A DNA stretch of 30,109 bases from Planctomycetota bacterium (lineage in GTDB: Bacteria > Planctomycetota > Planctomycetia > Pirellulales > UBA1268), in NCBI GenBank assembly GCA_046075145.1, contig JBJTPO010000204.1:1-30109 (forward strand). The letters run 5' to 3'. The notes under the pieces were generated by a model, which searched no databases, was not told the DNA's origin, and saw nothing but the letters and a program-made list of their open reading frames with translations. A program made the position numbers and the translations under genes. This document shows, piece after piece, positions 2 to 26,783 of this stretch (position 1 is its first letter; the number at the start of each line of letters is the position of its first letter).

Positions 2-3000
2 GCCGAGGCCCTGGTGGCCGCCCGTCGCGAGCCGGGCGGCATCTGGGGCTGGAAGGATCCACGGACCACGCTCCACCTCGAGTTTTGGCGCCGCGTGGTG
101 CCGGAGGCCCGCTTCCTGTTCGTCGTGCGGCGACCGTGGGAGGTCGTCGATTCGCTGTTCCGTCGTGGTGACGAGGCGTTTCGCTCGAACCCGCCCTTCG
201 CCATCCAGGTGTGGCTGCACTACAACCGCCTGATCCGCGACTTCGTCGTCAAGCATCCCGAGCAGTCGCTCGTGCGCGACCTCACGCAGGTCAGCAGGGA
301 TCCGGGCGAGGTCTTTGCGGCGGTGCGGCAGGTGCTCGGAGTCCCGCTCGGGGAGCCGCCCGACCGGTTCCGACCCGACCTGCTCTCCCAGGTCACCGAG
401 GCCTCGCGGGTCGCGTTCCTCGCCGCCACCTGCCCGGAAGCGATCGCCCTCTACGAGGAACTGGCGGCGCTCGCCGGCAGCGAGCCGCCCCGAGTGGACG
501 TCGGCCCGGGTGACCGTGGGGCCGTGGCCGGGCACGGGTTTCAGGAATGGAGTCAGTGCCGAAGCCTCGGCAGCCGGATGCAGCTGCTCGACCAGTCGCT
601 CGCCGAGGCCGACGACGCGAACGCCCGGCTGATGGCCGAACTCGCCGAGGCGCGGGAAGCCCGCGATGCCGCGATTCATCAGGGACAGGATCAAGCTGTC
701 AACCTCCAGAGCCAGCTCGACCTCGCCCGCCGACAGCTGGACGACGGCCGGGCGCGGCTGGAGCACACCGCACGGGGCCTCACGGAGCAGACCGAGGCCC
801 GAGCCGCCCTGGAGAACCAGGTCGTCCACCTGGAGCGGCAGCTCACGAACGCCGTCGCCGCGCGCAACGACGCTGCCGCCAGCCGCGACGCCAGACTGGC
901 CGAGTTCGAAGCGGCGGGCCAGGCGGCCGAGGCCAGGGCCGCAGCGTTCGAAGCCCGGTTCCGCGATGCCTCGCGCCGAGTCGAGGAACTCTCCCGGGCC
1001 GGCGACCATGACCGGCAGGCCGTCGCCGCCGCCGCCGCGGAGAGGGCGGCGCTCGACCGGGATCGAGCCGCCGCCGAGGCGCGGGCTCAGGCGCTCGAGG
1101 CCAGGGCCAACGAACTTGAACTGCTGCTGGCCGCGGCGGCAGCCCAGGCCGCCGAGAGCGAACTCGCCCACGACGATCTCGAACGGCAGCTGCTCACGCT
1201 CGAGGGCAGCAACTCCTGGAAGCTGACGCGGCCGCTGCGGTCGTTCCGGCGGCGGGCGATGTCGCGACCGACCGACTGGCTGCGACGGAAGGTTTCGGCG
1301 GCCGGTAGGCGGTGGTGGCGTTCGCTTCCCATCTCGATCGCCACGAAGCAGCGGCTGCGGCAGCGGCTCTTCACTCGCTGGCCGCTCTTCTTCCGCTGGA
1401 CCGACTCCTACCGTGACTGGCAGGCCTGCCGAGGACCAACCCCGCGAGATACGTCGGCGGCACGTCCCGCGACCCCGGCACCGCCGAGCGTGGTCGTGCG
1501 GCCGCCCCTGCCGCCAGCCGTGCCCCTGCCGCCAGCCGTGCCCCTGCCGGCGCCTGCACCGATTCCGGTCCAAGAAGCCGGCGTGCGGCTGATCGCCTTG
1601 CACCTGCCCCAGTTTCACCGGATTCCTGAGAACGACGCCTGGTGGGGCGAGGGCTTCACCGAGTGGACCAACGTCCGCCGCGGCCGGCCGATGTACGCCG
1701 GCCACGAGCAGCCGCATGTGCCGCACCCCGACGTGGGCTACTACGACCTCTCCGACCCCGCCGCGCTCGAGCGGCAGGCCGCGATGGCCGCCGCCCACGG
1801 GATCCACGGGTTCTGCTTCTACTACTACTGGTTCGGCGGGCGTCGGCTCCTGGAGAAGCCGCTCGACGAGATGCTGCGCTCGGGGCGGCCGAACTTTCCC
1901 TTCTGCATCTGCTGGGCCAACGAGAACTGGACCCGGACGTGGGACGGCCACGACACCGAGATCTTGATGGCGCAGTCCCACGAGCCCGCGGCTGACCGCG
2001 AGTTCATCCGCGACGTGATCCCGCTGCTCCGTGACCCGCGTTACATCCGCGTGGCCGGGCGGCCGCTCCTGGCGATCTACCGCCCGGAATCGCTCGCCGA
2101 TCCGCGGCGGGCGGCGGCCATCTGGCGGGAGGAGTGCCGCCGGGCCGGGATCGGCGAGATCCACCTGGTGGCTGTCCGCAGCTTCTCCAAGGACGACCCG
2201 GCACGATTCGGCTTCGACGCCGCCATCCAGTTTCCACCGCTGCAGATCCCGGCCCGCAACCTGGCCGGCGACGCCGCGGTCGCGGCCGTGCCGGGCTTCG
2301 CCGGCAGCATCCACGACTACGCCGAAGCGGCCGGCTTTTCGCTGGCCGAGACGGCGCCGGGCTATCGCATGTACCGCGGCCTGATGCCGGCCTGGGACAA
2401 CACGGCCCGGCGGATGGAACGGGCGACTTCATGGAGTGGCTCGTCACCGGCCCGCTACGGCGCCTGGCTGCGGGCGACGATCGACCGCACGATCCGCGAG
2501 CAGCCCCCGGAGCACCGGCTGGTGTTCGTCAACGCCTGGAACGAGTGGGCCGAAGGCGCTCATCTCGAGCCCGACACGCGGCACGGCTACGCCTACCTCG
2601 ACGAGACGGCTGCGGCGCTGGGCCTACCCCCGCCCAGCCGGCCGGTCGCCCCACCGATCAAGGCCGCGCCACCTGAAGTCACCCCGCCCGCAGCCGCGCC
2701 GACCACGATCAGCAGGGCGACCGCGGCCGACTCCCTGCCGGTCGAGCCGCCAGAAGTCCGCGACCACGCCTGGTCGCTCGTCACCGCGTTCCTAGGCGAG
2801 GAGCCCTCCCGCGAGCGACACGGGTTCCTCGCCGAACACACGGCCCTGCTCGGGCAACTGGCGGCGGGCGGCTGCCGCGTCCGGGTCGAGCATGGCCGCG
2901 TCGTCGCCGAAGCGGGCGGCGTCGAGACGCCCCTCGATCACCGCCGCGACCTGGCCGACGCGCTGGCCGTCGCGCGGGGAGACGACCCCGATGCCCCGTT

Positions 3001-5932
3001 CGCGTTCGTCGTGCTCCAGTTCGGCCGCTTCGACGTCACCGCCCGGTGCCTGGAGTCGCTCGTGCGGCTCGAGAGCCGCCGGCCGGTGCGCATCGTCGTG
3101 GTCGACAACGGCTCGCCGGCCGAGGTGATCGAGGCCACGCGCACGGCGGTCGCCGCGATGCCCGAGGTCGAGCTCCTGGAGACGGGCGCCAACCTCGGCT
3201 TCGCCGGCGGCAACAACGTGGGCTATGCCCATGCCCGCGACCGGCTCGGCGCCGCGTTCATCGCCGTGATCAACAACGACACCCGGATCGAGCAGACCGA
3301 CTTCATCCTCCGCTGCGAGCGGCTGTATCGCGAGACAGCCTGCTCGGTGCTCGGCCCCGACATCGTCACGCCCGACGGCCGGCGGGAGAACCCCTGGAAC
3401 GACACCGTCTACGGTCCCGGCGAGTGGCGGCGGCTCGCGGCGATGTATCACGAGGATCGGGCCGACTTCGAGCGGACCGGTCAGCCGCGGTTTCGCCGGC
3501 TCGGCCGGCGGTCACCCGAGGCGACGTTCCTCGCCAACCCGGTCCTCCAGGGGGCGGCGATCGTTCTCTCGCCAGTGTTCGTCCGCGGCATGCCGACCCT
3601 GTTCGACGAGCGGACGAAGCTCTACGGCGAGGAGTTCCTGTTCGCCGTCGACACCCTGCTCGCCGGCCACTTCATGGCCTACTCGCCCGAGGTTCAGATC
3701 CTCCACGAGGAGGGTGTCTCCACCGGAGCCCTGCCGAGCGCCACGAAGATGCGGCTCGGCTACGACAACGCGGCCCTGGCCGCCGGGCTCGCCGCCGGTG
3801 AACTCGACAACTTCGCGGCCGCCTGCCGGGGCGAGCCGCTCGACTGCCGGAGCGAGTCACTGGCGACGCTCGTGGCCGGGCCGCGGCGGCACGTGCTCGT
3901 CGACCTGTTCTTCTGCCAGCCTGGCTATCACGGCGGCGGCGAGTACGGGAAGGCGGTGTTCCGGGGCCTGGCCGGGGCCGCCGCCGCCCGCAGCGACGTC
4001 ACGGTCTGGGCCGCCCTCGATCCGGCGCTCCACATCGACCCCTGGGTGCTGGCCGAGTGCCGCCGGCTGGCGATCCGCGTGATCGCGGTCCGCTCCTACG
4101 CCGACATCGTCACGCTCGTGAACTCCGGCCGCTTCGACGCCTTCTTCTGTCCGGCGATCGTCGTCTACACCGGCTACGAGTACATGCGCCGGGCCGGCAC
4201 GCGGCTCCCCTTCAGTGGCGGCCGCACGCGGGTCGTCGGCACGCTGCACGACATCCGCGACCTGCAACTGATCCGCGACCGCGAGGCGATCACCGGATCG
4301 CTCGTGCGGGCCGGCTGGCGGCCCCAGGCGGCCGGCCCGGGCTCGTTCCTGGCGACCTCGGCCCCCGATCCCGCCTCCCTCGCGACGATGTACGCGGCGA
4401 TCTGCCACGATCCCCACGTCGACACGCTCGTCACCGTGTCGCGGTATTGCCTGGGTGAGATCGAGGCCGAGTTCGCCCCGCCGCCGGGGCGATTCGTGGT
4501 GCTCTCCTCGGCCGAGAAGGACCGGCCCGAGCCGACGCCCTTCCGCGGCAACGGGATCGGCGAGGATGGCCGCCCCTTCGCCCTGGTGCTCCACGCGGCG
4601 CGGCCGGAGAAGAACGCTCCGTCGGTGGCTGCCGCCTTCGACCGAATGTTCGCGGCCGAGGGGGATCCCTTCGGCTTGGCGGATCTGCGGGTGGTGTTCG
4701 TCGGAATCTCTTCGCTCGACGACCTCGGCCTGGGCCCGCTCGCACATCCAGAGCGGTTCACGGCGATCCCCGAGGTGCCTCCGGGCCAGCTCGAGTATCT
4801 GCTCGAGCAGGCCCGGATGCTCGTCTACGCCTCGTTCAACGAGGGCTTCGGCTACCCGCCCGTCGAGGCGATGCGCTACGGCACGCCCGCCGTCGTGGCC
4901 GCGGTCGCCGCGATCCCCGAGGTCTGCGGCGACGCCGCGGTGACCTGCGACCCGCGCGACGTCGACTCGATCACGGCCGCGATCCTCCAGGCCTGGCACG
5001 ACCCGCCCGCCCGCGACCGGATCGTCGGCCGCCACGCGGCGATCGCCGCCCGGCAGCGACGCGACCTCCTGGATCTCGTGCGGCTGGTGATCGACGGCGT
5101 GCGGCCCCCGGACCATGCCGCCGACGCCCTGCCGCCCCCGGCATCGGCGGCCACCGCACCCGCCGGCTACGTGCTGCGGCACGCCGGCTGGTGCCCGATC
5201 TGCGAACAGTCGACGACCTTCTCGGCCACCGAGGCGTGGCTCCGCGACCACTACCTCTGCGAGCGGTGCCACTCGCTGCCGCGGGAGCGGGCCCTGATGG
5301 TCGCGCTCCAGACCCGGTTTCCCGACTGGCGACGGCTCGCGATCCACGAGTCGTCGCCGGAGATGCGGGGCCTGAGCGCGAAGCTCGCCCGCGAGTGCCC
5401 CGGCTACGTGCCCTCGCAGTACGACCCCGCGACCCCCTGCGGCATGCTCGAGCCGGGGGGCCGCTGGCGGTCGGAGGATCTCGAACGGCAGACGTTCGAA
5501 TCGGGGTCGTTCGACGTCGTGATCACCCAGGATGTCTTCGAGCACATCTTCGACACCGACGCCGCCTTCCGGGAGGTGCAGCGGACGCTGCGGCCCGGGG
5601 GCGCGCACCTGTTGACGACACCGCTGGTGCGGGCGGAAGCGGCCTCCCGCCGCCGGGCGGAGCGGGGCCCCGACGGTGTGCGGCACCTCGAGCCCCCGGA
5701 GTTTCATGGCAATCCGATGTCGGCCGACGGCTCGCTCGTCACCTGGGACTGGGGCTATGACATCGTCGAGTGGATCCGCGCTTGCACCAGCGACGAGGCC
5801 CGGCGGATCATGGTCGAGATTCCGGCGCTCGGGATCGTGGCGGCGTATCTCGACGTCATCGTGGTCGAGCGGCATAGCGAGCGGAATGACCGCGGCCGCC
5901 GGCAGCTCCCCCGCCACGCCACCGCCCGCTGA
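2..5932 (+). CDS. Giant multidomain glycan-biosynthesis protein (5'-partial): sulfotransferase - coiled coil - WbsX/GH99-like - GT2 - GT4 - Zn-ribbon/class I SAM methyltransferase
   Basis: Frame is open from base 2. Motifs in order: WGWKDPRT and VVRRPWEVVDS (sulfotransferase, ~2-500); Ala/Glu/Arg heptad region (~578-1206); SNSWKLTRPLR; Pro-rich linker; LIALHLPQFHRIPENDAWWGEGFTEWTNV...NAWNEWAEG (WbsX, ~1586-2620); IVVVDNGS, NLGFAGGNN, INNDT, YGEE (GT2, ~2996-3770); HGGGEYGK, EGFGYPPVE (GT4, ~3890-5090); CPIC..CERC, FDVVITQDVFEH (methyltransferase, ~5180-5870). Confidence 0.93.
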   Translation, partial: AEALVAARREPGGIWGWKDPRTTLHLEFWRRVVPEARFLFVVRRPWEVVDSLFRRGDEAFRSNPPFAIQVWLHYNRLIRDFVVKHPEQSLVRDLTQVSRDPGEVFAAVRQVLGVPLGEPPDRFRPDLLSQVTEASRVAFLAATCPEAIALYEELAALAGSEPPRVDVGPGDRGAVAGHGFQEWSQCRSLGSRMQLLDQSLAEADDANARLMAELAEAREARDAAIHQGQDQAVNLQSQLDLARRQLDDGRARLEHTARGLTEQTEARAALENQVVHLERQLTNAVAARNDAAASRDARLAEFEAAGQAAEARAAAFEARFRDASRRVEELSRAGDHDRQAVAAAAAERAALDRDRAAAEARAQALEARANELELLLAAAAAQAAESELAHDDLERQLLTLEGSNSWKLTRPLRSFRRRAMSRPTDWLRRKVSAAGRRWWRSLPISIATKQRLRQRLFTRWPLFFRWTDSYRDWQACRGPTPRDTSAARPATPAPPSVVVRPPLPPAVPLPPAVPLPAPAPIPVQEAGVRLIALHLPQFHRIPENDAWWGEGFTEWTNVRRGRPMYAGHEQPHVPHPDVGYYDLSDPAALERQAAMAAAHGIHGFCFYYYWFGGRRLLEKPLDEMLRSGRPNFPFCICWANENWTRTWDGHDTEILMAQSHEPAADREFIRDVIPLLRDPRYIRVAGRPLLAIYRPESLADPRRAAAIWREECRRAGIGEIHLVAVRSFSKDDPARFGFDAAIQFPPLQIPARNLAGDAAVAAVPGFAGSIHDYAEAAGFSLAETAPGYRMYRGLMPAWDNTARRMERATSWSGSSPARYGAWLRATIDRTIREQPPEHRLVFVNAWNEWAEGAHLEPDTRHGYAYLDETAAALGLPPPSRPVAPPIKAAPPEVTPPAAAPTTISRATAADSLPVEPPEVRDHAWSLVTAFLGEEPSRERHGFLAEHTALLGQLAAGGCRVRVEHGRVVAEAGGVETPLDHRRDLADALAVARGDDPDAPFAFVVLQFGRFDVTARCLESLVRLESRRPVRIVVVDNGSPAEVIEATRTAVAAMPEVELLETGANLGFAGGNNVGYAHARDRLGAAFIAVINNDTRIEQTDFILRCERLYRETACSVLGPDIVTPDGRRENPWNDTVYGPGEWRRLAAMYHEDRADFERTGQPRFRRLGRRSPEATFLANPVLQGAAIVLSPVFVRGMPTLFDERTKLYGEEFLFAVDTLLAGHFMAYSPEVQILHEEGVSTGALPSATKMRLGYDNAALAAGLAAGELDNFAAACRGEPLDCRSESLATLVAGPRRHVLVDLFFCQPGYHGGGEYGKAVFRGLAGAAAARSDVTVWAALDPALHIDPWVLAECRRLAIRVIAVRSYADIVTLVNSGRFDAFFCPAIVVYTGYEYMRRAGTRLPFSGGRTRVVGTLHDIRDLQLIRDREAITGSLVRAGWRPQAAGPGSFLATSAPDPASLATMYAAICHDPHVDTLVTVSRYCLGEIEAEFAPPPGRFVVLSSAEKDRPEPTPFRGNGIGEDGRPFALVLHAARPEKNAPSVAAAFDRMFAAEGDPFGLADLRVVFVGISSLDDLGLGPLAHPERFTAIPEVPPGQLEYLLEQARMLVYASFNEGFGYPPVEAMRYGTPAVVAAVAAIPEVCGDAAVTCDPRDVDSITAAILQAWHDPPARDRIVGRHAAIAARQRRDLLDLVRLVIDGVRPPDHAADALPPPASAATAPAGYVLRHAGWCPICEQSTTFSATEAWLRDHYLCERCHSLPRERALMVALQTRFPDWRRLAIHESSPEMRGLSAKLARECPGYVPSQYDPATPCGMLEPGGRWRSEDLERQTFESGSFDVVITQDVFEHIFDTDAAFREVQRTLRPGGAHLLTTPLVRAEAASRRRAERGPDGVRHLEPPEFHGNPMSADGSLVTWDWGYDIVEWIRACTSDEARRIMVEIPALGIVAAYLDVIVVERHSERNDRGRRQLPRHATAR
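1505..1549 (+). repeat. 2.5 tandem copies of an 18-bp unit (cccctgccgccagccgtg, PLPPAV) in the Pro-rich linker
   Basis: Exact copies at 1505-1522 and 1523-1540, partial copy at 1541-1549; in frame. Confidence 0.9.
1628..1668. repeat. 41-bp perfect inverted repeat with 15653-15693 (between paralogous WbsX domains)
   Basis: gagaacgacgcctggtggggcgagggcttcaccgagtggac is the reverse complement of 15653-15693. Further perfect blocks: 2392-2418 with 14903-14929 (27 bp) and 2530-2559 with 14762-14791 (30 bp). Confidence 0.92.
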
Positions 5933-7375: not shown

Positions 7376-7444
7376 CGCCGAATCCCGGGTGGCCGCGTCG
7401 ACCGCTGGGGTGGCGCGGTGCCACGGACGCTTGCCGGCCCGCAC

Positions 7445-7474: not shown

Positions 7475-7506
7475 GCCAGTCGCGACGGAACGGCCACCAC
7501 ACTCCC

Positions 7507-11356: not shown

Positions 11357-12211
11357 TCAGGTCGGCTGCAGGGCCACGATCACCTGGAGCGGATCGTGCC
11401 CGGTCCACTCGACCTGGACGATGCGCCAGTCGGGGGCCAGGCGTTGGAGGTGATCGAGCGACATTGACGTGTCGCCATAGCTGATATCGCCCGCTGCCGT
11501 GGGCGTCCTTCGGTGGGGCAAAAAGGCGAACCCCTGTTCCCGATGCCGCGCTTCGTAGTCTTCGAATCCGCTGCCGCCCCACTGCCTCCAGTACTCGATG
11601 GGCCGGATGGTCAGACAAAGCAGACCGTCTTCCCGTACGACCTGTCGCAGGGTCGCCAGAACCGTCCGCGCCGTCTGCTCGCTAAGATGCGTGAATACAC
11701 TGAACGAAAAAATGAGGTCGAATGGCCTGCGGAACGGTAGGGTCGCCGGGACCTCCTCACTCACCGCCAACGGGCACCTCAAGCCGCTCTCCTGGCAGAG
11801 CCGAATCGATTCACCCCAGGAGTCGACGCCATGCAAGGCCGGCTCGGGAACCGCATGGAGGAGCAGCCGCAGAAGCCTGCCCCAGCCACAGCCGAAGTCG
11901 AGAATGCTCGCCGAGTCGATGCCTCGCCGGGCATGTCTTCCCCACAGGCCCAGCAGCGTTCGCACAAAGGCCAGCGACTGAATCATCAGCGGCATGCCAT
12001 GGTTGCCGGTCCAGTTACGCTGGACCTGCTCCGCGGGCATCGACGGCAGGCGGGCCGCCAGCGCCGGCCACTGTTCAGGCACGCCGATCAGCAGTTCGCC
12101 GAACACCTCGAGTGGAATGGTTCGCATCGCCTCGGAAATCGTCAGATTTCGATCATCGGCCAGGAGGCCGTCGATCCGCGCCAGTTCCGTCTCGAAAAGT
12201 TCGAGCATCAT
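11357..12211 (-). CDS. Class I SAM-dependent methyltransferase
   Basis: ILDFGCGWGRLLR (motif I), FDLIFSFSVFTHL. Start overlaps the stop of the upstream giant gene (ATGA/TGATG; ATG 12211 or 12208). Confidence 0.9.
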   Translation of the reverse strand: MMLELFETELARIDGLLADDRNLTISEAMRTIPLEVFGELLIGVPEQWPALAARLPSMPAEQVQRNWTGNHGMPLMIQSLAFVRTLLGLWGRHARRGIDSASILDFGCGWGRLLRLLLHAVPEPALHGVDSWGESIRLCQESGLRCPLAVSEEVPATLPFRRPFDLIFSFSVFTHLSEQTARTVLATLRQVVREDGLLCLTIRPIEYWRQWGGSGFEDYEARHREQGFAFLPHRRTPTAAGDISYGDTSMSLDHLQRLAPDWRIVQVEWTGHDPLQVIVALQPT

Positions 12212-15200
12212 GCAACTCGCAATGAGATTGAGGGGATGTCGCGAGGGGTCGCGGCGCGAGGCCCACGACAAAGGATCTTGACGAGCCGGGTGAGGTCGGC
12301 CTCCTGGCGGGCGGCGATCGTCGCGTGCTGGCCCCGCAACTCCTCCGCGGCCGGCGGCGCAGCGAGCATCGTGCGGATGGCGGTGGCGATGCTCTCGAGG
12401 TCGAAGGGGTCGCAGGGGATCGCCGCGGCACCGCAGACCTCGGGTACCGCCGTGTTGGCGGCGACGACGCTCGGGGTGCCGTGGGCCATGGCCTCGAGCG
12501 GCGGATACCCGAAGCCCTCGTTCAACGACGGGTAGAGCAGGAACCGGGCCTCGCGGTAGAGGTATTCGAGCCGCTCCGGCGGCAGATATGGCAGCGTGAC
12601 GAAGCGGCCTGGATTGGCGAGCGACACCAGGCCCAGGTCGTCCATCCGGCCGATCCCGGTGAACAGGAGCTTCAGCCACGGATGCTCCGCCGCGAAGCGG
12701 GGGTCGGAGCAGAGCCGATCGAAGGCAACCGCGGCGGTGACGGCGTTCTTCTCGATGCGTCCGGCGTTGATCATCAGGGCGAACTCGTCGCGGCCCGGTT
12801 CGACGCCCGGCAGGGCGAACGGCTCGGGGGCCGGCCGATCCTTGGCGGGTGAAAACAGCACCTCGAGAGGCCGGTGGCAGCCGACGCTGGCTCGGATCGT
12901 GGCGGCTGAGTACTCGGACACCGTCACCAGCCTGTCGATCGCGGGGCTGGCACAGATGCCTTCGTACATGGTCCGCAGCTGCCCAGCGATCCCCGCCTGT
13001 CGGGCTACCTCCTGCCGCACCTGAGGCGGGCTCATCGCCTCCTCGGTTCGGCAGCCGCTCGCCCGGCGCACCTCGAGCACCCGCTCCCACTCCTCCGCCA
13101 GCACCTGGTCGCGGATGTCGTGCAGCGTGCCGACGACATAGGTCGGGCCGGCCGTGAAGCCGAGTTCGCCACCGACCCGCTTCTGATACTCGTAGCCCGT
13201 GTAGACGACGATCGCCGGGGCGAAGAAGGAGCTGAACAGGCCCGCGTTGACGAGCCCCGTGATCTCGGCGAACGACTTCACCGCCACGATGTTGACGGCA
13301 TGCTCGCGGCAGGCCTGCCACACCCAGCCGTCGATGAACAAGGCCGGGTCGAGCGCGGCCCAGAGCTGCACGTCGCCCCGTGCGGCCGTCGCGGCGACGA
13401 GCGCCTTGAACACGGCCTTGCCGTACTCACCCCCGCCGTGAAAGCCCGGCTGGCAGAAGAGCAGGTCCACGAGCACGTGCGTCCGGCCGTCGGCGGTGAG
13501 CGGCTCGATCTCGGCGGTGTCGGGCCCGAGCCACTTCCCCCGACTGGCCGCCTCGTGCCGCTCGAGCCGTCTCCGGCAGAGCGCGGCCGTCTCGATCACC
13601 GCGTCGTAGCCGAGTGCGAGCTTGCGCCGCTCGGGCACCTTCGCCGTGGACACGCCCTCCTCGTGGGCGATCACGATCCGTGGGTCGTAGACGGCCTGGT
13701 GGCCGGTCAGAAGGCAGTCCACCGCCAGCAGGAACTCCTCCCCGTAGAGAAACGTCCGCTCGTCGAAGGCCCGCGCGCGCTCCGCCGTGAACACGGGCGA
13801 GAAGACGTAGGCGGCGCCCTGGAGGATCGGCTCATGGAGCGTCGTCGCCGCGGGGCTGCGGCGACCCAGGCGGCGGAACTCGGCCGGCCCGCCCTCCTCC
13901 CAGGTGACCCGCTGCCGCTCGTAGAGATCACCCAGGGCCGCCCACTCGCCGGCGTCGTAGACCTCGTCGTTCCACGGGTTCTCGTGACGTCCGTCGGGCG
14001 TGACGATGTCGGGCCCGAGCACCGACCAGGCCCGCTCCGCGAACGAGGCCAGGCACTTGGCGACGAACTCGGGATCGCCCACGACCGTGTCGTTGTTGAT
14101 CACGGCGATGAAGCCGGCCCCGAGAACGTCCCGGGCATGCGTGTAGCCGACGTTGTTGCCCTTGGCGAAGCCCAGGTTTTCGCCGGTGAACAGGAGCGTC
14201 ACGTCGGGCAGCGCGGCGAACAGCGTCCGGGTCTTTTCCACCGCGGCCGGCTCGGAACCGTTGTCGACCACCACGATGCGCACCCGACGGCCACCGGTCG
14301 GGAGCCGCCGCAGCGAGGCGACGCAGCGGGCCGTGACCTCGGGCTGGTTGAACTGGAGGACGACGAACGCGAAGGGATCATCGGCCCCCGGTCGGGCGGC
14401 GCGCGCCGCGGCGGCGACAGCCGCCGGGGAGTCGAGCGGGAAGACTTCCTGACCGATCGTGCACCCGGGCCGGCCCTGGTCGAGCGCGAGGCGATGGCCC
14501 GCGGCCGCCAGCCCCGCGATCGCCGCCACCTGGTTGAGCAGAAAGCCGTGCGACGCCTCGGGCACGCCGCCGCCGAACAGCGTGCGCAGCCGGGCCCGGC
14601 GGTGTTCGATCGCGGCGGTGTGCCGGTTCGGTACGAGTGGGGCCGAAACCGTCCGGACGGACGCCGCCACCGGAGCCCGCCCCCCGGCGGGCCGGGGCAG
14701 GAGCGCCGCCGCGGTCTCCTCCAGCACCCGATAGCCGTGCCGCATGTCGGGCTCGAGGTGGGCGCCTTCGGCCCACTCGTTCCAGGCGTTGATGAACACG
14801 AGTTGCCGCTCGGGCGGCTGCTCCCGCTGCATCTGCTCCACCACACCCCGCAACCAGCGGCCGTAGAGTTCGGGTGAGGAGTTGACCCAGGCCGTGGCCC
14901 GCTCCATCCGCCGGGCCGTGTTGTCCCAGCCGGGCATCACGCCGCGGTACAGCGGGTAGTCGGCCGGAGGCCGCGCGAGCGAATGACAGATCGCTTCGCG
15001 GTAGTCGAGCACGCCGCCGCGGAAGCGGCGATCCATGCCGGCAAGGCCGGTATCCCGCAGGTTCGTGGCGGGAATCTGCAGCGGCGGAAACTGGATCGCC
15101 GCGTCGAAGCCGTAGCTTCGCGGGTCGGCCTTGTCGAAGGAGTGCACGGCGGCCAGATGCAGCCCCGGCAGGCCCTCCCGCTCGGCAAGTCGCCGCCACC

Positions 15201-16551
15201 GGTCCGCGGTCGCCGCCGGTTCGGCCAGCAGGCCCGGCCGGTAGACGGCCAGGAGCGGCCGCCCGTCGACGGTGATATATCGCTCGTCGCGGAGGGCCGG
15301 CAGCAACTCCCGGAGAAACCGTTCGTCGCCGTCGGCCGAGTGCCGCTGCTCCAGGAGCACCTCGCGGTCGAGGCCGTCCCAGGTCCGCGTCCAATTCTCG
15401 TTGGCCCAGCATAGGCAGAAGGGAAAGTCAGGGCGGCCGCTCGCCAGGAGCTGCTCGACCGGCTTCTCGAGGATCCGCCGGCCGTCGAACCAGTAGTGGT
15501 AGAAGCAGAAGCCGTGGATGCCGTGCCGGCGGGCCATCTCGGCCTGCCGCTCGAGCACGCCCTCCTCGGCCAGGTCGTAGTAGCCGAGGTCGGGGTGCGG
15601 CACGTGCGGCTGCTGGTGGCCGGCGAACATCGGCCGGGCCCGCCGCACGTTCGTCCACTCGGTGAAGCCCTCGCCCCACCAGGCGTCGTTCTCCGGCACG
15701 CGGTGGAACTGGGGCAGGTACATCGCGATCGCCCGCACGTGGCCGCGGTTGGCCGGACCGGCCATGACCGGAGCCGCGGCCGGGCCCGCCGCCGCCACGC
15801 CGCCGGGTGCATAGGCGACCGCCGCCGCGGCCCGCGCGTCTGCGCCGGCCGGCTCGTATTCGGTGACCAGGAAGTGCACGAACGGATTGACGTCGGCCGC
15901 GAGGGGTACGGGCCGGGCGGCCACATAGGCGGCCAGCGAGAAGCCGGGCGAAGGCTCGCGACGCTCCCGCCAGCCCGAGCCGAGGAAGTGCGACAGTGGC
16001 TCGAGACCAGCCAGCGCCACGTCCGGGTTGCGGTCAAGGTACCAGCCGACGTCAAACAGCGGATGCGGGATCCGGCCCTCGCGCCAGCCCGCGGTGAGGT
16101 AGTGCTCGAGGGGTTCGAGCCCGGCCGCTGCGACGTCGGCATGGGCCGCCAGATAGCCGGCGGCATCGAAGGCCGGATGCGGCGAGCGGCCCTCCCGCCA
16201 GCCTTGCGTGAGGTAATGCAGCAGCGGTTCGCAGCCTGAGGCCGTCACGTCGGGATAGCGGACGGCGTACCACGACGGGTCGAAGAGCGGATGCGGCTGG
16301 CGGCCCTCCCGCCAGCCGTGCGCGACATAGTGGGTGAGCGGATCGAGCCCGGCGGCCCGCACGTCGGGGTGGCAGCCGAGATACCAGGTGGCATCGAACA
16401 GCGGGCTAGGCGAGTGCCCCTTCCGCCAGCCACGGCGGCGGTAATAGGCCCACGGCCGCCAACGGATGCGCGGGCGACTCGCGCCATACCGGGTGGCGTA
16501 CCAGCGTGCGGCGAAGTAGGGACGCAGGTCGGGCCGCATCGGATCCGGCAT
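12208..16551 (-). CDS. Multidomain glycosyltransferase: 38-aa repeats - WbsX/GH99-like - GT2 - GT4 (paralog of the 2-5932 core)
   Basis: AIAMYLPQFHRVPENDAWWGEGFTEWTNV, NAWNEWAEG, IVVVDNGS, INNDT, YGEE, HGGGEYGK, EGFGYPPLE. Start is ATG 16551 (or 16539). Confidence 0.92.
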   Translation of the reverse strand: MPDPMRPDLRPYFAARWYATRYGASRPRIRWRPWAYYRRRGWRKGHSPSPLFDATWYLGCHPDVRAAGLDPLTHYVAHGWREGRQPHPLFDPSWYAVRYPDVTASGCEPLLHYLTQGWREGRSPHPAFDAAGYLAAHADVAAAGLEPLEHYLTAGWREGRIPHPLFDVGWYLDRNPDVALAGLEPLSHFLGSGWRERREPSPGFSLAAYVAARPVPLAADVNPFVHFLVTEYEPAGADARAAAAVAYAPGGVAAAGPAAAPVMAGPANRGHVRAIAMYLPQFHRVPENDAWWGEGFTEWTNVRRARPMFAGHQQPHVPHPDLGYYDLAEEGVLERQAEMARRHGIHGFCFYHYWFDGRRILEKPVEQLLASGRPDFPFCLCWANENWTRTWDGLDREVLLEQRHSADGDERFLRELLPALRDERYITVDGRPLLAVYRPGLLAEPAATADRWRRLAEREGLPGLHLAAVHSFDKADPRSYGFDAAIQFPPLQIPATNLRDTGLAGMDRRFRGGVLDYREAICHSLARPPADYPLYRGVMPGWDNTARRMERATAWVNSSPELYGRWLRGVVEQMQREQPPERQLVFINAWNEWAEGAHLEPDMRHGYRVLEETAAALLPRPAGGRAPVAASVRTVSAPLVPNRHTAAIEHRRARLRTLFGGGVPEASHGFLLNQVAAIAGLAAAGHRLALDQGRPGCTIGQEVFPLDSPAAVAAAARAARPGADDPFAFVVLQFNQPEVTARCVASLRRLPTGGRRVRIVVVDNGSEPAAVEKTRTLFAALPDVTLLFTGENLGFAKGNNVGYTHARDVLGAGFIAVINNDTVVGDPEFVAKCLASFAERAWSVLGPDIVTPDGRHENPWNDEVYDAGEWAALGDLYERQRVTWEEGGPAEFRRLGRRSPAATTLHEPILQGAAYVFSPVFTAERARAFDERTFLYGEEFLLAVDCLLTGHQAVYDPRIVIAHEEGVSTAKVPERRKLALGYDAVIETAALCRRRLERHEAASRGKWLGPDTAEIEPLTADGRTHVLVDLLFCQPGFHGGGEYGKAVFKALVAATAARGDVQLWAALDPALFIDGWVWQACREHAVNIVAVKSFAEITGLVNAGLFSSFFAPAIVVYTGYEYQKRVGGELGFTAGPTYVVGTLHDIRDQVLAEEWERVLEVRRASGCRTEEAMSPPQVRQEVARQAGIAGQLRTMYEGICASPAIDRLVTVSEYSAATIRASVGCHRPLEVLFSPAKDRPAPEPFALPGVEPGRDEFALMINAGRIEKNAVTAAVAFDRLCSDPRFAAEHPWLKLLFTGIGRMDDLGLVSLANPGRFVTLPYLPPERLEYLYREARFLLYPSLNEGFGYPPLEAMAHGTPSVVAANTAVPEVCGAAAIPCDPFDLESIATAIRTMLAAPPAAEELRGQHATIAARQEADLTRLVKILCRGPRAATPRDIPSISLRVA
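15850..16401 (-). repeat. Tandem 114-bp (38-aa) repeats, consensus LFDxxWYLxxxPDVxxAGLxPLxHYxxxGWREGRxPHP
   Basis: Four clear units starting at 16401, 16287, 16173 and 16059, a degenerate fifth from 15945, and a degenerate unit before 16401. Confidence 0.9.
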
Positions 16552-16788: not shown

Positions 16789-18312
16789 ATGACGGCATCA
16801 CCGACCGCCGGCCACCCGCCGGTCCTCGTCATCGGCGGGATGCACCGCTCCGGCACGTCACTGACTGCGTCGGTCATCGCGGCCGCAGGCATCCACCTCG
16901 GCGACGACCTGATGGCCGCCGGCGCCGGCAACCCGCGCGGGCACTTCGAAGACCTCGCGTTCTATCACCTGCACCAGCGCATCCTGGCCGCCAACGGCCT
17001 GTCGCTGGAAGGGTTCACCTGCCAGGAAACCATCGACGTACCGCCAGCCGCACGGATCGAGGCGAACGAGCTCGTCGCCCGCCGCCGCGGAGCGGGCCGG
17101 CCCTGGGGCTGGAAGGATCCGCGGACGGTGTTGCTGCTCGACTTTTGGGCCGACCTGCTCCCCGAGGCCAGATGGCTGTTCGTGGTGCGGCCTCCCGAGC
17201 AGGTGGTCGACTCGCTGCTCCGCCGCGGTGACACGGCCTTCATCGTGAACCCGCGGCACGCGATCGACGTCTGGGTCGCCTACAATCGCCGGATCCTGGA
17301 GTTCGTGCACCGACACCAGCAGCGGTCGGTCGTCGTGGACCTCGAACAGGTGACCGCCGACCCCGCATCGCTCGTGGCGACCGTGTCCAACCTGATGGGC
17401 ACGGTGCTCTCGCCACCCCCCTCGACCTACGAGGAGGGGCTGCTCGTGTCGGGCCTGCCACCGCATCGCGCGGGGCTGGTGCGGACCGTGCGGCCGGAGG
17501 CGCAGGAACTGCACGCGCAGCTGCGGCGGCTGGCCGGTCTTGAATCGGCCGTGGACGGCGGGCCGTTCAGGCAGACGGAGACCGCCGATGCCGCGCTCGC
17601 CGAGTGGACCATCAGCTGCCGCACCGGGGCAGCCGCCGGACAACTCGCGGCCCGCGAAGCCGACGCGCGACAGGCCGCCGAGCGGCTCGCCGCCGAACTC
17701 GAGACCGAGCGGGCCGCCCGGTCGGAACTCGCCGCCCAGACCGAGACCCTGACGGCCGACCGGTCGGCGATCGTGACCGCCCTCGAGACCGAGCGGGCCG
17801 CCCAGGGCCAGTTGGCAGCCACGCTCGAGACCGAGCAGGCCGCCCACCTCCACGCCCGCGACCGCGCGGCCGAACTCGAACGCGACGTCGCCCGCTGCGA
17901 GCAGGCGATTGTGACGCTCGAGGCACGCTGGAAAGCCGCCACCGCGGACGCGGACGCCGCACTCGACGCTCTGGCGACGCACCGCGCGGCGGAGGCCGAA
18001 GCTCGACTGGCGATCGAGCGGCAGCTGGCCGAGGCCCTGGCCCGGAGCGAGGCGGCGGAACGCACGGCGGCGCGGCTCGAGACCGCGCTCGCGGACCGCG
18101 ACCTCGCGATCCCGCGGCTCGAGGCGGCGCACGCCGAGGCCAGGGCGCGGGCCGAGCAACTCGACGCCGAGGCCACGGCCGCCGCCGGTGAGCGACACGA
18201 CCTCGTCGCTCAACTGGAGGCGGAGCGGGCGATCCACGAGGCGCTGCGGCAGGACATGAACGGCCGGATCGAGGCGGCCGTGACCTGCCGCGACCGGCAC
18301 CGTCCGCGCTAG
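16789..18312 (+). CDS. Sulfotransferase-family domain + C-terminal coiled coil (~507 aa)
   Basis: GGMHRSGTS (5'-phosphosulfate-binding loop), NPRGHFED, WGWKDPRT, VRPPEQVVDS (3'-phosphate motif R-x7-S), then ~220 aa of A/E/L/R heptads. Confidence 0.9.
   Translation: MTASPTAGHPPVLVIGGMHRSGTSLTASVIAAAGIHLGDDLMAAGAGNPRGHFEDLAFYHLHQRILAANGLSLEGFTCQETIDVPPAARIEANELVARRRGAGRPWGWKDPRTVLLLDFWADLLPEARWLFVVRPPEQVVDSLLRRGDTAFIVNPRHAIDVWVAYNRRILEFVHRHQQRSVVVDLEQVTADPASLVATVSNLMGTVLSPPPSTYEEGLLVSGLPPHRAGLVRTVRPEAQELHAQLRRLAGLESAVDGGPFRQTETADAALAEWTISCRTGAAAGQLAAREADARQAAERLAAELETERAARSELAAQTETLTADRSAIVTALETERAAQGQLAATLETEQAAHLHARDRAAELERDVARCEQAIVTLEARWKAATADADAALDALATHRAAEAEARLAIERQLAEALARSEAAERTAARLETALADRDLAIPRLEAAHAEARARAEQLDAEATAAAGERHDLVAQLEAERAIHEALRQDMNGRIEAAVTCRDRHRPR
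17698..17844 (+). repeat. Three 21-bp direct repeats (ctcgagaccgagcgggccgcc, LETERAA) in the coiled coil
   Basis: Copies at 17698, 17782 and 17824 (one mismatch in the third); spacings are 84 and 42 bp, i.e. 28 and 14 codons. Confidence 0.85.
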
Positions 18313-19049
18313 GACTCCTCGAGAGCGTCGCCACGGCCGCGGATCGGCTCGTCCCGCACGATCGCCCCATGGGAAAGCTCGATCACGCGATTGCACTCCC
18401 GGGCGATCAGCTCCGCCGAGTGGGAGGCGATCACGAGGATCCCACTGTGCGACACCAGTTCCCGGATCCGCTGCTCGGCCTGCTGCCGGAACTCGGCGTC
18501 GCCGACCGAGAGCCATTCGTCCATCAGCAGGATGTCGGCCCGCACGCTCGTCGTGATCGCGAAGGCCAGCCGCATCAGCATGCCGGTCGAGTAGGTGTGG
18601 ACCGGCATGTGCAGGTAGTCGCCCAGGCCGCTGAACTCGGCGATGTCGGGAGTGAGCCGGCGGATCGTGCGGCGGTTGAGCCCGAGCACCAGTCCGCGGA
18701 TCATGATGTTCTCGTAGCCGGTGGCCTCCCGTTCGATCCCCAGCATCGGATTGACGAGGCTGGCGATCGAGCCTTCATGGCGATACCGCCCCCGGGTCGG
18801 CGGGTAGACACAGGCGAGCGTCTGCAGGAGCGTCGATTTTCCGGAGCCGTTGTGGCCGACCACCCCGAGCCGGGCGCCGTCGCGAAGCTCGAGCGTGACG
18901 TCGCGGAGCGCCTCGACGACCGTGATCCCGGTGCCCCTGCCGATCCGACCCCCGGTGGCTGCGGCGGTGAGCGTTTTTTTCAACGACTCCCCGTCGGCCC
19001 CGAAGACGGGGTAGTCCACCGACACGGCGTCGAGCGCGATCAGGGTCAT
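18309..19049 (-). CDS. wzt: Polysaccharide ABC transporter ATP-binding subunit, no C-terminal carbohydrate-binding module
   Basis: Walker A GHNGSGKST, signature YSTGM, Walker B ILLMDEW, H-loop ASHS; only 246 aa; follows wzm. Confidence 0.93.
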   Translation of the reverse strand: MTLIALDAVSVDYPVFGADGESLKKTLTAAATGGRIGRGTGITVVEALRDVTLELRDGARLGVVGHNGSGKSTLLQTLACVYPPTRGRYRHEGSIASLVNPMLGIEREATGYENIMIRGLVLGLNRRTIRRLTPDIAEFSGLGDYLHMPVHTYSTGMLMRLAFAITTSVRADILLMDEWLSVGDAEFRQQAEQRIRELVSHSGILVIASHSAELIARECNRVIELSHGAIVRDEPIRGRGDALEES

Positions 19050-19053
19050 CGGG

Positions 19054-19899
19054 TCACACCCAATACACGACCTGGCGACGCCAGCGGGCGTAGAGAACCA
19101 CCGCCACGGCGACGTTCAAGGCGGTGAAGTACAACAGGAAGCGGACGGTTCCCGGTGCCGCATACCCGCCCAACAGCGGCAGCCGCAGGACGTCGAGCAA
19201 CTGGGCGAGCGGGTTGTAGAGAATGAATCGGGACCGCTCCGGCAGCCTCTCTGGGATCCAGAACACAGGTGTCAAGAACATCAGCAGTTGAAGCGAACTG
19301 GCCACGATGTTGGGCACGTCGCGAAACCGGGCCGAGAGCAGGCCGAGCGTGATCGACAGGGCATGAAGATTGACGACCACCACGACGAGGCCGGGCAGCA
19401 CGAGCAGCATCTGCGGGCTCCAGGTGAGCCCCGCCCAGATCGCGACCGGCAGGTAGAGGACCAGGTGATGGGCCAGGAAAAACAGATGCTTGGCCAGGCT
19501 TCGCCAGACGAACACGCTGCGCGGCACGGCTCCCTGCTTGAGGTAGGGGGCCGACGAGATGAACACCTGGCAGCCGTCGTTGATCGAGGTGCTGAGGAAG
19601 TTCCAGAAGATGATGCCCAGCGCCAGGTGCGGATAGAACCGGGCCAGCGGCACGTCGAACAGCGCCGCGTACAGCGGGCCCATCCCCAACAGCATCGCTC
19701 CCATGCTGAGCGTGATCCACCAGGGGCCCAGGAGCGAGCGGCGGTAGCGGAGGACGATGTCGTACCAGGCCAGCGTGCCCCAGAGGTCGATCTGCAGCGT
19801 GCCGCTCCACCAGTCGGACCAGCCGCTCCCGACGGGCTGCAGGTGTTGCGCCGGCTCCGGCAGCCGCGCTGTGGCGACGGTGGCAGGCGGGGCGGGCAC
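19054..19899 (-). CDS. wzm: Polysaccharide ABC transporter permease
   Basis: DIVLRYRRSLLGPWWITL, RFRDVPNIV, FLTPVFW, YNPLAQLLDVLRLPLLG; six TM segments; GTG start. Confidence 0.92.
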   Translation of the reverse strand: MPAPPATVATARLPEPAQHLQPVGSGWSDWWSGTLQIDLWGTLAWYDIVLRYRRSLLGPWWITLSMGAMLLGMGPLYAALFDVPLARFYPHLALGIIFWNFLSTSINDGCQVFISSAPYLKQGAVPRSVFVWRSLAKHLFFLAHHLVLYLPVAIWAGLTWSPQMLLVLPGLVVVVVNLHALSITLGLLSARFRDVPNIVASSLQLLMFLTPVFWIPERLPERSRFILYNPLAQLLDVLRLPLLGGYAAPGTVRFLLYFTALNVAVAVVLYARWRRQVVYWV

Positions 19900-21005: not shown

Positions 21006-21040
21006 CGCACCCGAAAGACGACGCCGGCTCGCTCGCCCCG

Positions 21041-26742: not shown

Positions 26743-26783
26743 CAACCGATTCCCTTCCTCGCTGTTTCCCGGAGGCGCCTGCG

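Follow-up and report, generated by a model that had tools for sequence, protein, structure and literature searches.

A planctomycete gene joining a predicted sulfotransferase, a coiled-coil stalk and a glycan polymerase: a possible sulfate-capping system

Introduction

Whether sulfate may serve bacteria as a new kind of chain-end cap, by analogy with the caps already characterized, is the question raised by a surface-glycan locus of a planctomycete of the order Pirellulales. The control of chain length through a capping enzyme carried on a coiled-coil ruler is among the features of bacterial glycan synthesis that are understood best; to our knowledge, the caps added in this way are limited to methyl, phosphate-methyl, and Kdo, and sulfate, if its role as a cap is true, would be a new chemistry among them. 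The window (the whole stretch of DNA that was analyzed, 30,109 nucleotides of contig C204) begins inside a gene that encodes, in this order, a sulfotransferase, a coil, a basic amphipathic junction, a WbsX domain, a GT2 module, a GT4 module, and a methyltransferase. No sulfate terminator, either proposed or shown, was found in the open full-text literature; the census of Mann, Kimber, and Whitfield (2019) lies outside that scope, and sulfate terminators may have been predicted elsewhere before.

The Fused Gene

The fused gene is the ORF at 2..5932 (+), which is open at its 5' end, encodes 1976 aa in the window, and ends with a stop codon at 5930-5932; the full-length protein is about 2070 aa. 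The GC content by codon position, 0.74/0.53/0.90, is as expected for a genuine gene when the DNA is 72% GC, and the long ORFs antisense to it have the wrong pattern. The domain order recurs in full-length orthologues from independently made ENA and JGI assemblies; this recurrence and the third-position GC of 0.90 led us to reject both a frame left open by chance and a chimeric assembly.

Two contigs of the MAG, C443 and C204, each carry part of the gene; the completeness of the MAG is 79.6%. About 91 residues at the start of the protein are absent from the window contig, and 80 of these were recovered on C443 (G000:C443:242..3, minus strand), the remaining 11 or so codons being unassembled. 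On C443, rmlA and rmlC come before these 80 residues, so that both genes precede the fused gene. The recovered piece carries the motifs GMHRSGTS and GHFEDL, the former being the PSB loop, at aa 17-24. A preliminary description of this DNA had expected a GxxRSGTS loop in the missing 5' end, about 95 aa upstream; the loop is there, at the shorter distance of about 70-75 residues from the first residue of the window. The same description had claimed a single ORF of at least 1976 aa running from the sulfotransferase to the methyltransferase, and this is upheld by the codon-position GC, the Pfam matches, and the C443 sequence.

The Sulfotransferase Head and the Supply of PAPS

The window contains the C-terminal 60%, approximately, of the sulfotransferase domain (2..475, +; aa 1-158 of the fragment), which is of the PAPS-dependent type and includes the motif WGWKDPR and the 3'-phosphate-binding (3'-PB) pair R43 and S51. 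This fragment matches the Sulfotransfer_3 profile (PF13469) at aa 15-75 with an E value of 0.01 and 16.5 bits, against a cut-off of 27 bits, and it reaches 23.1 bits, still below the cut-off, in the genome-wide search. The weak score is attributed to the domain being cut by the contig end. The complete paralogue encoded in the same locus, P0002, passes the same cut-off marginally (29.6 bits), and orthologues of the fused gene carry a precomputed PF13469 annotation.

The assignment of the head as a sulfotransferase is based on four elements: its similarity to the head of P0002 (45% identity, E 9e-49), which has the GMHRSGTS motif; the presence of that motif in the orthologues; the 5' end on C443; and the fold of P0002. 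The AF2 model of the P0002 domain has pLDDT values mostly of 82-98, and each of its best 41 fold matches in the PDB is a sulfotransferase, in most cases solved in complex with PAP or PAPS; the fold matches include the mycobacterial Stf0, Stf1, and Stf9. It was these fold searches that were informative, as a PDB sequence search with the head of an orthologue gave no significant match.

Residues R43, D50, and S51 are invariant in the alignment of the fused family (A1), and the equivalent Arg/Ser pair, R148/S156, is invariant in a second alignment (A2). R43 and S51 are eight residues apart, a spacing which we take to match that of TPST. Little or no variation is seen in the PSB loop, the 3'-PB Arg/Ser pair, or GHFEDL across 49 family members, both local copies included. 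Judged by its sequence, the fused head is a sulfotransferase of the PAPS type whose cofactor loops are intact, and sulfate transfer itself is predicted.

The donor should be available, since the genome contains cysD, a cysN-cysC gene, and a further cysC, the set that the preliminary description had named for PAPS synthesis, and also cysH. The genome search gave no ATP sulfurylase of the Sat type (PF01747), which is of no consequence given the presence of CysD and CysN. By its gene content, the genome is predicted to be able to make PAPS.

The Stalk and the Junction

The head is followed by a coiled-coil stalk at 554..1207 (+; aa 185-402), 218 aa long and without a single proline. Its L, I, V, M, and F residues have their strongest period at 3.5 residues, and the enrichment at the heptad a and d positions gives z = 6.0 against shuffled sequences, as compared with z = -2.3 for the WbsX domain used as a control; matches to SMC-type profiles are weak. 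At 0.148 nm per residue, a fully extended stalk would be about 32 nm long. The coil of about 210 aa proposed in the preliminary description is therefore confirmed at a slightly greater length, with further support from the helix model of the paralogue. Among the orthologues the coil is 197-252 aa long, with a mean identity of 39% compared to 69% in its flanks; a length that is kept while the sequence drifts is what is expected of a spacer.

At the foot of the stalk is a basic, aromatic-rich junction (1208..1429, +; aa 403-476) that begins with SNSWKLTRPLR and contains 20 K/R against 3 D/E, together with 12 aromatic residues. Its amphipathic moment is at the 99th percentile of the protein, it has no transmembrane helix, and its mean identity among orthologues is 69%. 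These features make the junction a candidate for binding the membrane peripherally or for lying close to the polymerase. The SNSW motif is found in 10 of 10 fused planctomycete proteins and in none of 29 sulfotransferase fusions from cyanobacteria or other non-planctomycetes, and it is thus clade-specific. A Pro/Ala-rich flexible linker (1430..1588, +), with a perfect 18-nt tandem repeat in 2.6 copies at 1504-1549, leads to the polymerase side.

The Polymerase-Side Modules

The first of these modules is the WbsX domain (PF14307, Glyco_tran_WbsX) at 1589..2605 (+; aa 530-868), identified with a Pfam E value of 2e-130. A PDB sequence search with this domain gave nothing significant. Its AF2 model (pLDDT 89.4) is a predicted GH99-like (beta/alpha)8 barrel, and the best 37 PDB fold matches, with TM-scores of 0.52-0.63, are GH99 endo-alpha-mannosidases or mannanases, with the exception of the match at rank 5, 5ngw, a GH-like entry of unstated family. 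The module is therefore predicted to have a GH99-like fold, and the profile and fold matches agree with the earlier description of WbsX in these terms. The domain has invariant glutamates in an NEWxE motif. WbsX has 9669 cluster representatives. A literature search on WbsX/PF14307 matched mostly papers on the filarial WbSXP; its single pertinent result was a phage-resistance study of Burkholderia gladioli in which the O-antigen gene wbsX was mutated.

The GT2 module, of the GT-A type, is at 2996..3511 (+) and matches PF00535 (Glycos_transf_2; aa 1007-1170, E 7e-9) and PF13641, with a weak similarity to rhamnosyltransferases (TIGR01556, E 1.5e-5). The GT4 module is of the GT-B type; its C-terminal Rossmann half, as delimited by Pfam, is at 4565..5023 (+), matches PF00534 (Glycos_transf_1; aa 1522-1674, E 2e-15) and PF13692; the module carries the E-x7-E motif (EGFGYPPVE). 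The C-terminal, polymerase-proximal domain at 5462..5722 (+) is a class I SAM methyltransferase (PF08241, Methyltransf_11, aa 1821-1870, E 1e-9; also PF13489 and PF13847).

A Second, Split Set and the Exporter

The locus contains a second, paralogous set divided over separate genes. Its polymerase core, at 12208..16551 (-), is about 1447 aa long from M57, with WbsX at 14716-15729, GT2 at 13849-14361, and GT4 at 12337-12798, and it is 55% identical to the core of the fused gene over 1193 aa. Where the fused gene has its sulfotransferase-coil arm, this polymerase has 38-aa N-terminal repeats (nt 16060-16431). Immediately downstream of it lies a separate methyltransferase gene (11357..12208, -), which is no paralogue of the methyltransferase domain of the fused gene.

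The sulfotransferase of this set is the free sulfotransferase-coil protein P0002 (16789..18312, +; 507 aa from M15), whose complete sulfotransferase domain is at nt 16819-17541. Its coil is modeled as a single helix of 238 residues at aa 276-513 (nt 17572-18285) and contains a 42-nt repeat, equal to two heptads, in 2.8 copies. It has no detectable sequence similarity to the coil of the fused protein. The C-terminus of P0002 bears a conserved motif, and no amphipathic membrane helix is recognizable there.

The ABC exporter is encoded 12 kb downstream of the fused gene, beyond the second polymerase set (18309..19899), and in this position the wzm/wzt pair previously noted in the locus is borne out. 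Wzt (18309..19049, -; 246 aa) matches PF00005 and positions 4-231 of the 244 of the galactan-type Wzt profile; it consists of the nucleotide-binding domain only, with no carbohydrate-binding module (CBM), and Wzt_C (PF14524) was not found in the 79.6%-complete MAG. The ABC-2 permease Wzm is at 19054..19899 (-). Two further GT2 genes at 20004..22024 (+), namely 20004-21005 and 20879-22024 (the start of the latter being uncertain), are candidate primer or adaptor glycosyltransferases, and the ligase of the exported glycan may be a Wzy_C membrane protein of the O-antigen-ligase type, with C-terminal TPR repeats (22964..24928, +). The term single-polypeptide assembly line, used in the preliminary description, was consequently an overstatement, as the locus holds two paralogous sets, and besides them a ligase-like gene, two further GT2 genes, and several methyltransferases.

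Relatives in Planctomycetes and Cyanobacteria

The full-length orthologues of the fused gene encode 1753-2075 aa with the same domain order and the same GMHRSGTS loop, located in nine of them at aa 17-24, 88 residues upstream of WGWKDPR. In relatives at 68% and 45% identity the gene order is also kept: rml and GDP-mannose-dehydratase-type genes, the fused gene, methyltransferases, the second core, the free sulfotransferase-coil gene, and wzt. Wherever the fetched loci of the relatives include wzt, its product is short as well.

The same sulfotransferase family is commonly fused to a coil and GT modules in cyanobacteria. These proteins, of 1000-2177 aa and encoded beside wzm/wzt, have GMHRSGTS at the N-terminus, then a proline-free segment of 190-460 aa, then GT2/GT4 modules, and often a C-terminal methyltransferase. 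The Wzt_C CBM is present on Wzt in 27 of 37 cyanobacterial loci, and a methyltransferase or methyltransferase-coil gene adjoins the CBM-bearing Wzt in 20 of the 37. The sulfotransferase fusion immediately follows a CBM-bearing Wzt in at least seven loci, where no further coil gene intervenes.

Comparison with Known Systems

The closest layout is that of WbbB from K. pneumoniae O12 and Raoultella terrigena, in which an N-terminal modifying enzyme, a coil, and the polymerase GTs are likewise in one polypeptide, and whose pathway depends on Wzm/Wzt (PMC11231755), both of which are also encoded in the locus of the fused gene. However, the head is a GT99 beta-Kdo transferase in WbbB and a predicted PAPS sulfotransferase in the fused protein, and the polymerase side has two GTs in WbbB and three modules here, including the GH99-like WbsX, in addition to a methyltransferase. 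Moreover, in contrast to the WbbB system, Wzt here has no CBM.

Another parallel is ORF6 of K. pneumoniae O7, which combines a methyltransferase-kinase terminator, a coil, and two C-terminal GT2 modules (PMC11231755). As is proposed for the fused protein, it has a nonglycosyl cap enzyme at the distal end of a coil fused to a polymerase part, and further modules are supplied by other proteins (PMC11231755), a feature comparable to the system of the fused gene. The cap chemistry differs, being methyl-phosphate in O7 and predicted sulfate here, and the O7 Wzt has a CBM and exports only terminated chains (PMC11231755), whereas Wzt here has none.

P0002 instead resembles WbdD of E. coli O9a/O8 (= K. 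pneumoniae O3/O5), with its N-terminal head, its extended C-terminal coil, and its gene beside that of a separate multimodule polymerase. It differs from WbdD in having a sulfotransferase in place of the kinase/methyltransferase, and a conserved C-terminal motif with no recognizable amphipathic membrane helix. The WbbB/WbdD-like layout recognized in the preliminary description thus agrees with the domain order of O12 WbbB and O7 ORF6 for the fused gene, and with that of WbdD for P0002 (PMC11231755).

Other envelope sulfotransferases and one animal system provide looser comparisons. LpsS of Sinorhizobium meliloti is an LPS sulfotransferase and, like the mycobacterial Stf0 and Stf1, it exemplifies PAPS-dependent sulfation of cell-envelope glycoconjugates. 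Unlike the fused protein, these enzymes are stand-alone and lack both a coil and an attached polymerase, and no part in chain-length control has been proposed for them. In animals, the HNK-1 sulfotransferase reportedly limits the extension of matriglycan, a growing linear glycan, by LARGE1 through the 3-O-sulfation of its terminal glucuronate, which makes it a eukaryotic precedent. These are Golgi enzymes of an unrelated pathway, and no coiled-coil ruler connects them to the polymerase.

Proposed Mechanism and Alternatives

The reading that we favor, with a probability of about 0.45, is that the product of the fused gene is a polymerase-terminator, located in the cytoplasm and bound peripherally to the membrane, for a surface glycan exported by the ABC transporter, the glycan being probably rich in deoxyhexose or rhamnose and O-methylated. 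The WbsX, GT2, and GT4 modules would extend an undecaprenyl-linked chain at the membrane, while the adjacent methyltransferase would decorate it. An oligomeric coil would keep the sulfotransferase about 30 nm away, so that only the nonreducing end of sufficiently long chains could reach it, and sulfate placed on the acceptor hydroxyl at that end would block further extension. The coil would thereby determine the modal length of the chains, the role that coils have in WbbB and WbdD. Since Wzt has no CBM, export would not proofread the cap, and termination and export might be uncoupled or coupled in another way. P0002 would have the same task with the second polymerase, and the product would be another glycan or another block.

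This polymerase-terminator reading is favored by the architecture, the PSB loop, the sulfotransferase fold of P0002, the invariant PSB and 3'-PB residues, the coil and its conserved length, the basic junction, the synteny, and the PAPS genes; the heptad-multiple repeat in the coil of P0002 and the cyanobacterial fusions adjacent to CBM-bearing Wzt are also counted for it. It is weakened by the Wzt without a CBM, both here and in those loci of the relatives that include wzt, given that all experimentally proven terminator prototypes have a Wzt with a cap-binding CBM (PMC11231755), and also by the methyltransferase or methyltransferase-coil genes of 20 of the 37 cyanobacterial loci, by the incompleteness of the MAG, and by the division of the gene between contigs. 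Somewhat doubtful, in our judgment, is the more specific version, in which sulfate is a true cap, of a chemistry not known to be described for any bacterial glycan, placed through a coiled-coil ruler of about 30 nm with no cap-reading CBM in this planctomycete clade, and the two sets, one fused and one split, produce two length-defined glycans or a two-block copolymer.

The same missing CBM is the starting point of an alternative that we consider possible, though with less than even odds, in which the sulfotransferase acts along the chain to give a sulfated, methylated polysaccharide, and the coil only oligomerizes or scaffolds the synthase. Chain length would then derive from the balance between polymerization and export, as in the CBM-less K. 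pneumoniae O2a. With its two sulfotransferases and its methyltransferases, at least four as genes or domains, the locus points to heavy decoration. This sulfotransferase family is abundant in cyanobacteria, whose polysaccharides are sulfated along the chain. In the 20 cyanobacterial loci mentioned above, the separate methyltransferase-coil gene could be the real terminator, and an ABC-type sulfotransferase cluster has been proposed for the sulfated capsule of Arthrospira (Maeda et al. 2021, PMC8205485). Nevertheless, a modifier acting on every repeat would be badly placed some 30 nm from the polymerase, and the enzyme that is fused beside the GTs is the methyltransferase; the conservation of coil length despite the drift of its sequence fits poorly with a simple scaffold; and a distal enzyme on such a coil is the terminator in every studied case (PMC11231755).

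A role for the coils in pairing rather than measuring is improbable. According to this idea, the fused and P0002 coils (a Rosetta-stone pair) would form a heteromeric scaffold in which two cores and two sulfotransferases make one heteropolymer, and the sulfotransferases may act on a nonterminal or nonglycan acceptor, such as a primer or the lipid-linked end. The fused and split sets do occur together in every locus of a relative that reaches far enough, and the coils are similar in length (218 versus about 234 aa). On the other hand, their sequences have no detectable similarity. The one complex prediction covered a different contact, that of two copies of the P0002 C-terminal coil (aa 380-521) with the second-polymerase repeats (aa 57-330); it scored 0.00, which lends no support to docking and does not count against it either. 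Across six genomes the lengths of the fused and split coils track each other loosely (r about 0.6, n = 6), a correlation that is weak, not significant, and drawn from related genomes, and for these reasons it was not used as evidence. Less probable again is a head that is inactive, or has another substrate, and serves the stalk only as a cap with a structural or regulatory role; the Pfam score, marginal even in complete members, would fit such a head, but the near-invariant cofactor motifs of the 49 members, the confident sulfotransferase fold of the P0002 model, and the PAPS pathway all argue for an active enzyme.

Implications

If the polymerase-terminator reading is true, it would link the termination of bacterial glycans to the sulfation-based length control of animal glycans, and it would offer a handle on sulfated surface polymers of defined size in planctomycetes and cyanobacteria, with relevance to marine carbon cycling and to the microbial production of sulfated polysaccharides. 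The locus is a convenient test case, as the fused and split formats are side by side, and the methyltransferase on the polymerase side makes it possible to compare two modifying enzymes within one protein. The CBM-less exporter, in turn, makes it possible to ask whether capping always requires an exporter that recognizes the cap.

The cyanobacterial relatives with a CBM-bearing Wzt, some of them cultured, are the more tractable systems. Fusions of the type found in Arthrospira platensis PCC 7345 (locus L030) share with the planctomycete gene the sulfotransferase family, the coil-like segment, and the GTs, and differ from it in having no WbsX module, no SNSW junction, and a Wzt that usually carries the Wzt_C CBM.

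The fused gene and its sulfotransferase head

All 30,109 bases of contig C204 make up the window; C204 belongs to a MAG of 758 contigs and 3.34 Mb that is 79.6% complete. The window's GC content is 64-74%, and Planctomycetota/Pirellulales MAGs are both the closest genome records and the source of the named homologues of its proteins. The fused gene, ORF 2..5932 (+), is open at the 5′ end and has a GC content per codon position of 0.74/0.53/0.90, usual for a real gene at such GC; the long ORFs antisense to it have values of the shadow type. In its product, P0001, Pfam recognizes WbsX (aa 530-868, E 2e-130), GT2 (aa 1007-1170), GT4 (aa 1522-1674), and class I methyltransferase (aa 1821-1907) domains, together with Sulfotransfer_3 (aa 15-75), a weak match (E 0.01, under the cut-off) because the domain is truncated. 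NCBIfam adds SMC-like matches at aa 185-400 and a weak rhamnosyltransferase match on the GT2 module, so that the domain list of the preliminary description is borne out by the five Pfam domains and these matches.

A complete paralogue in the window, P0002 (16747..18312, +), is 45% identical to P0001 across the shared head (E 9e-49), scores above the Pfam cut-off, and possesses both GMHRSGTS and WGWKDPR. A search of 5.8 billion proteins returned nine full-length orthologues of P0001 (1753-2075 aa), which are 42-77% identical to it within the first 480 residues and whose precomputed Pfam sets agree with its own, save that the methyltransferase is missing in four. GMHRSGTS lies at aa 17-24 in all of them, GHFEDL is nearly invariant, and the 3′-phosphate-binding Arg/Ser pair (R43 and S51 in the P0001 fragment) is invariant in the alignments, according to which about 91 N-terminal residues are absent from P0001. 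By using the N-terminus of an orthologue as query, the start was found on the minus strand of another contig of the MAG, C443, whose end cuts the gene. Its first 80 codons (242..3, 85% identical to the orthologue) are preceded by rmlC (340..876) and rmlA (873..1742), both also on the minus strand; C443 (1-1742) abuts the window, in the gene order of the relatives' loci L010-L012, with about 11 codons unassembled in between. The missing 5′ end, expected in the preliminary description to carry the loop, was recovered in that P0001's own start was located, with GMHRSGTS in it.

The AF2 model of P0002 (pLDDT 82) has a confident α/β head, and its best 41 PDB fold matches are all sulfotransferases, including TPST1/2, the CurM and olefin-synthase sulfotransferase domains, heparan sulfate 3-OSTs, NDST, and the mycobacterial Stf0, Stf1, and Stf9. 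For PAPS synthesis, the MAG has genes for CysD, for CysH, and for two CysC proteins, one of them in a CysN-CysC fusion that a contig end interrupts, which answers the earlier suggestion to look for cysDNC; seven Sulfotransfer_3-like genes occur in the whole MAG.

The coil and the junction at its foot

The predicted coiled coil was also corroborated. P0001 has no proline at aa 185-402, its L/I/V/M/F periodicity is strongest at exactly 3.5 residues, and a/d enrichment in the best register is 6.0 SD over shuffles (-2.3 for the WbsX control), while AF2 models the P0002 coil as one helix (aa 276-513). With a rise of 0.148 nm per residue, the 218 residues of the P0001 coil would reach about 32 nm if fully extended. 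In 10 fused proteins, coil length ranges from 197 to 252 aa, with a mean pairwise identity of 39% versus 69% in both flanks; length is kept as sequence drifts, as expected of a spacer, and selection would seem to act on how long and how helical the coil is, not on its sequence. The P0002 coil contains a 42-nt tandem repeat (14 aa, two heptads; ×2.8, 17686-17803), which is a simple way to alter stalk length by multiples of the heptad.

Directly C-terminal of the P0001 coil is a 74-residue segment opening with SNSWKLTRPLR, conserved to the same degree as the catalytic domains. It contains 20 K/R, 3 D/E, and 12 aromatic residues, its amphipathic moment is at the 99th percentile of P0001, and it is followed by a Pro-rich linker with a perfect 18-nt repeat. 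No transmembrane helix is predicted in P0001, P0002, or the third large protein, P0003. By analogy with WbdD, the C-terminus of which binds the membrane (PMC11231755), we infer that this junction may be a peripheral membrane anchor, which would fix the polymerase modules to the membrane surface and leave the sulfotransferase well away from it.

The WbsX module

The WbsX family is very large (9669 cluster representatives at E ≤ 0.001), and its members mostly sit within multidomain proteins of 500-2200 aa. A PDB sequence search detected no solved structure. In the AF2 model of the P0001 domain (pLDDT 89.4), the 37 best fold matches are GH99 endo-α-mannosidases/mannanases, with the addition of one glycoside-hydrolase-like entry whose family is unstated, and GH71 enzymes rank next; on these matches, the earlier label "GH99-like" is right. 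A NEWxE motif is invariant in the WbsX domains (1589-2605 and 14716-15729), and its E-x-x-E spacing presumably resembles that of the two catalytic glutamates in GH99 enzymes. If this motif is catalytic, a module that is very common in O-antigen megaproteins and passes for a glycosyltransferase could instead work as a retaining glycosidase or transglycosylase.

A second, split set in the same locus

The description of a single-polypeptide assembly line is an overstatement: besides the six modules in one ORF, the locus has a further, split set. P0003 (12208..16551, -), with the order WbsX-GT2-GT4, shares 55% identity with the fused core across 1193 residues. Where P0001 has its sulfotransferase-coil arm, P0003 has 38-aa repeats, four strong and two degenerate; at the DNA level they form a 114-nt tandem (×3.3, 16060-16431), with a unit consensus of roughly DVxxAGxEPLxHYLxxGWREGRxPHPLFD. 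Complex prediction gave no support for docking of these N-terminal repeats with the P0002 C-terminus, a score that counts neither for nor against such docking. P0003 is followed by a separate methyltransferase gene (-), non-paralogous to the fused methyltransferase, and is divergent from P0002, which in turn is convergent with wzt and wzm (-). Further along are two GT2 genes, an unknown gene, and a Wzy_C/TPR ligase-like gene; a 478-aa ORF (25495-26931, -) has no Pfam match. The stretch between the fused and split sets contains a DUF4214-methyltransferase gene, an 825-aa ORF (7354-9831, +) of coding type (GC3 0.82) with no match in Pfam or NCBIfam, and a convergent methyltransferase gene.

This order is kept on metagenomic contigs whose fused proteins are 68% and 45% identical to P0001: rml and GDP-mannose-dehydratase-type genes, GT2, rmlA, rmlC, and the fused gene, then methyltransferases and the second core, after which a protein occupies the position of the free gene. 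The last is a Sulfotransfer_3 protein in the 68% relative; in the 45% relative, whose locus also reaches a short wzt, it has no Pfam match on record, but its C-terminal tail is homologous. The fused-type and free-type heads are separate orthologous groups (32-37% identity between them, 42-82% within the free type), which makes the duplication an old one with both copies maintained. Free proteins end in the motif LVAQLEAERxIHExLRxDMTGRIEAAV (18190-18312), conserved to about 50% overall identity and a candidate interaction site.

Export and the proposed site of sulfation

In every experimentally terminated system, the cap is read by a CBM on Wzt (PMC11231755). This hallmark is lacking here, because the Wzt is of NBD length (246 aa, aligning from end to end with the profile for galactan-type Wzt proteins, which have no CBM) and no Wzt_C (PF14524) was found in the MAG (79.6% complete). 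Where the fetched loci of relatives reach wzt, its product is likewise short or has no detectable CBM (238 aa in L012; no CBM match in L013 or L014).

In P0001 the methyltransferase adjoins the GT modules and the sulfotransferase lies about 30 nm off, a layout that favors terminal sulfation: the distant sulfotransferase would modify the non-reducing end of long chains, and the terminal sulfate would halt growth. We tentatively prefer this stop signal, at a probability of roughly 45%. Sulfation along the length of the chain, where the coil would act as a scaffold, is a serious although somewhat less probable competitor, for which the CBM-less Wzt, the chemistry of cyanobacterial sulfated polysaccharides, and a proposal of Maeda et al. 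(PMC8205485), in which the Arthrospira sulfated capsule is the product of an ABC-type sulfotransferase cluster, all argue. Two further readings are less likely than either. A heteromeric scaffold of fused and free proteins is improbable; an inactive head, set beside the invariant Arg/Ser pair, is very improbable indeed.

The stop signal would follow the logic of the coiled-coil terminators WbbB and WbdD, but with a sulfotransferase as the head; the version here has six modules, is present twice, once fused and once split, and is paired with a CBM-less exporter. The full-text literature searched revealed no bacterial sulfate terminator; an earlier prediction is possible, the 2019 census (Mann, Kimber, Whitfield) lying outside its scope. 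That census reportedly predicted new chemistries.

Distribution of the sulfotransferase family

More than 568 relatives of the GMHRSGTS family occur among species-representative genomes. In many cyanobacteria (Arthrospira, Microcoleus, Tychonema, Limnoraphis, Okeania, Nostoc, and others) the family forms the N-terminus of 1000-2177-aa proteins, with a proline-free run of 190-460 residues after the head, from aa ~235-290. Among 37 non-planctomycete loci, almost all of them cyanobacterial, in which Wzt is encoded near the sulfotransferase, a homologous CBM is present in 27 and a methyltransferase(-coil) gene in 20, and in at least seven the sulfotransferase gene directly follows the CBM-Wzt gene. 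The locus of cultured Arthrospira platensis PCC 7345 (L030, 6013-16258) bears all the classical hallmarks, including the Wzt_C CBM: wzm, a Wzt_C-bearing wzt, a 528-aa methyltransferase-coil protein, and then a 2091-aa sulfotransferase/coil/GT2/GT2/GT4/methyltransferase fusion. It may be connected with the rhamnose-rich polysaccharides, both sulfated and methylated, that have been reported for A. platensis.

When 151 genomes from the order of the window were sampled, matches with E ≤ 1e-20 were confined to its genus (four of six other species); such patchy spread is usual for surface-glycan loci. In one of the genus's other species, a 2322-aa frame with a related sulfotransferase-coil start (G039:C122:6063-7139) is interrupted by one TAG and may be either a pseudogene or the product of an error in sequencing.
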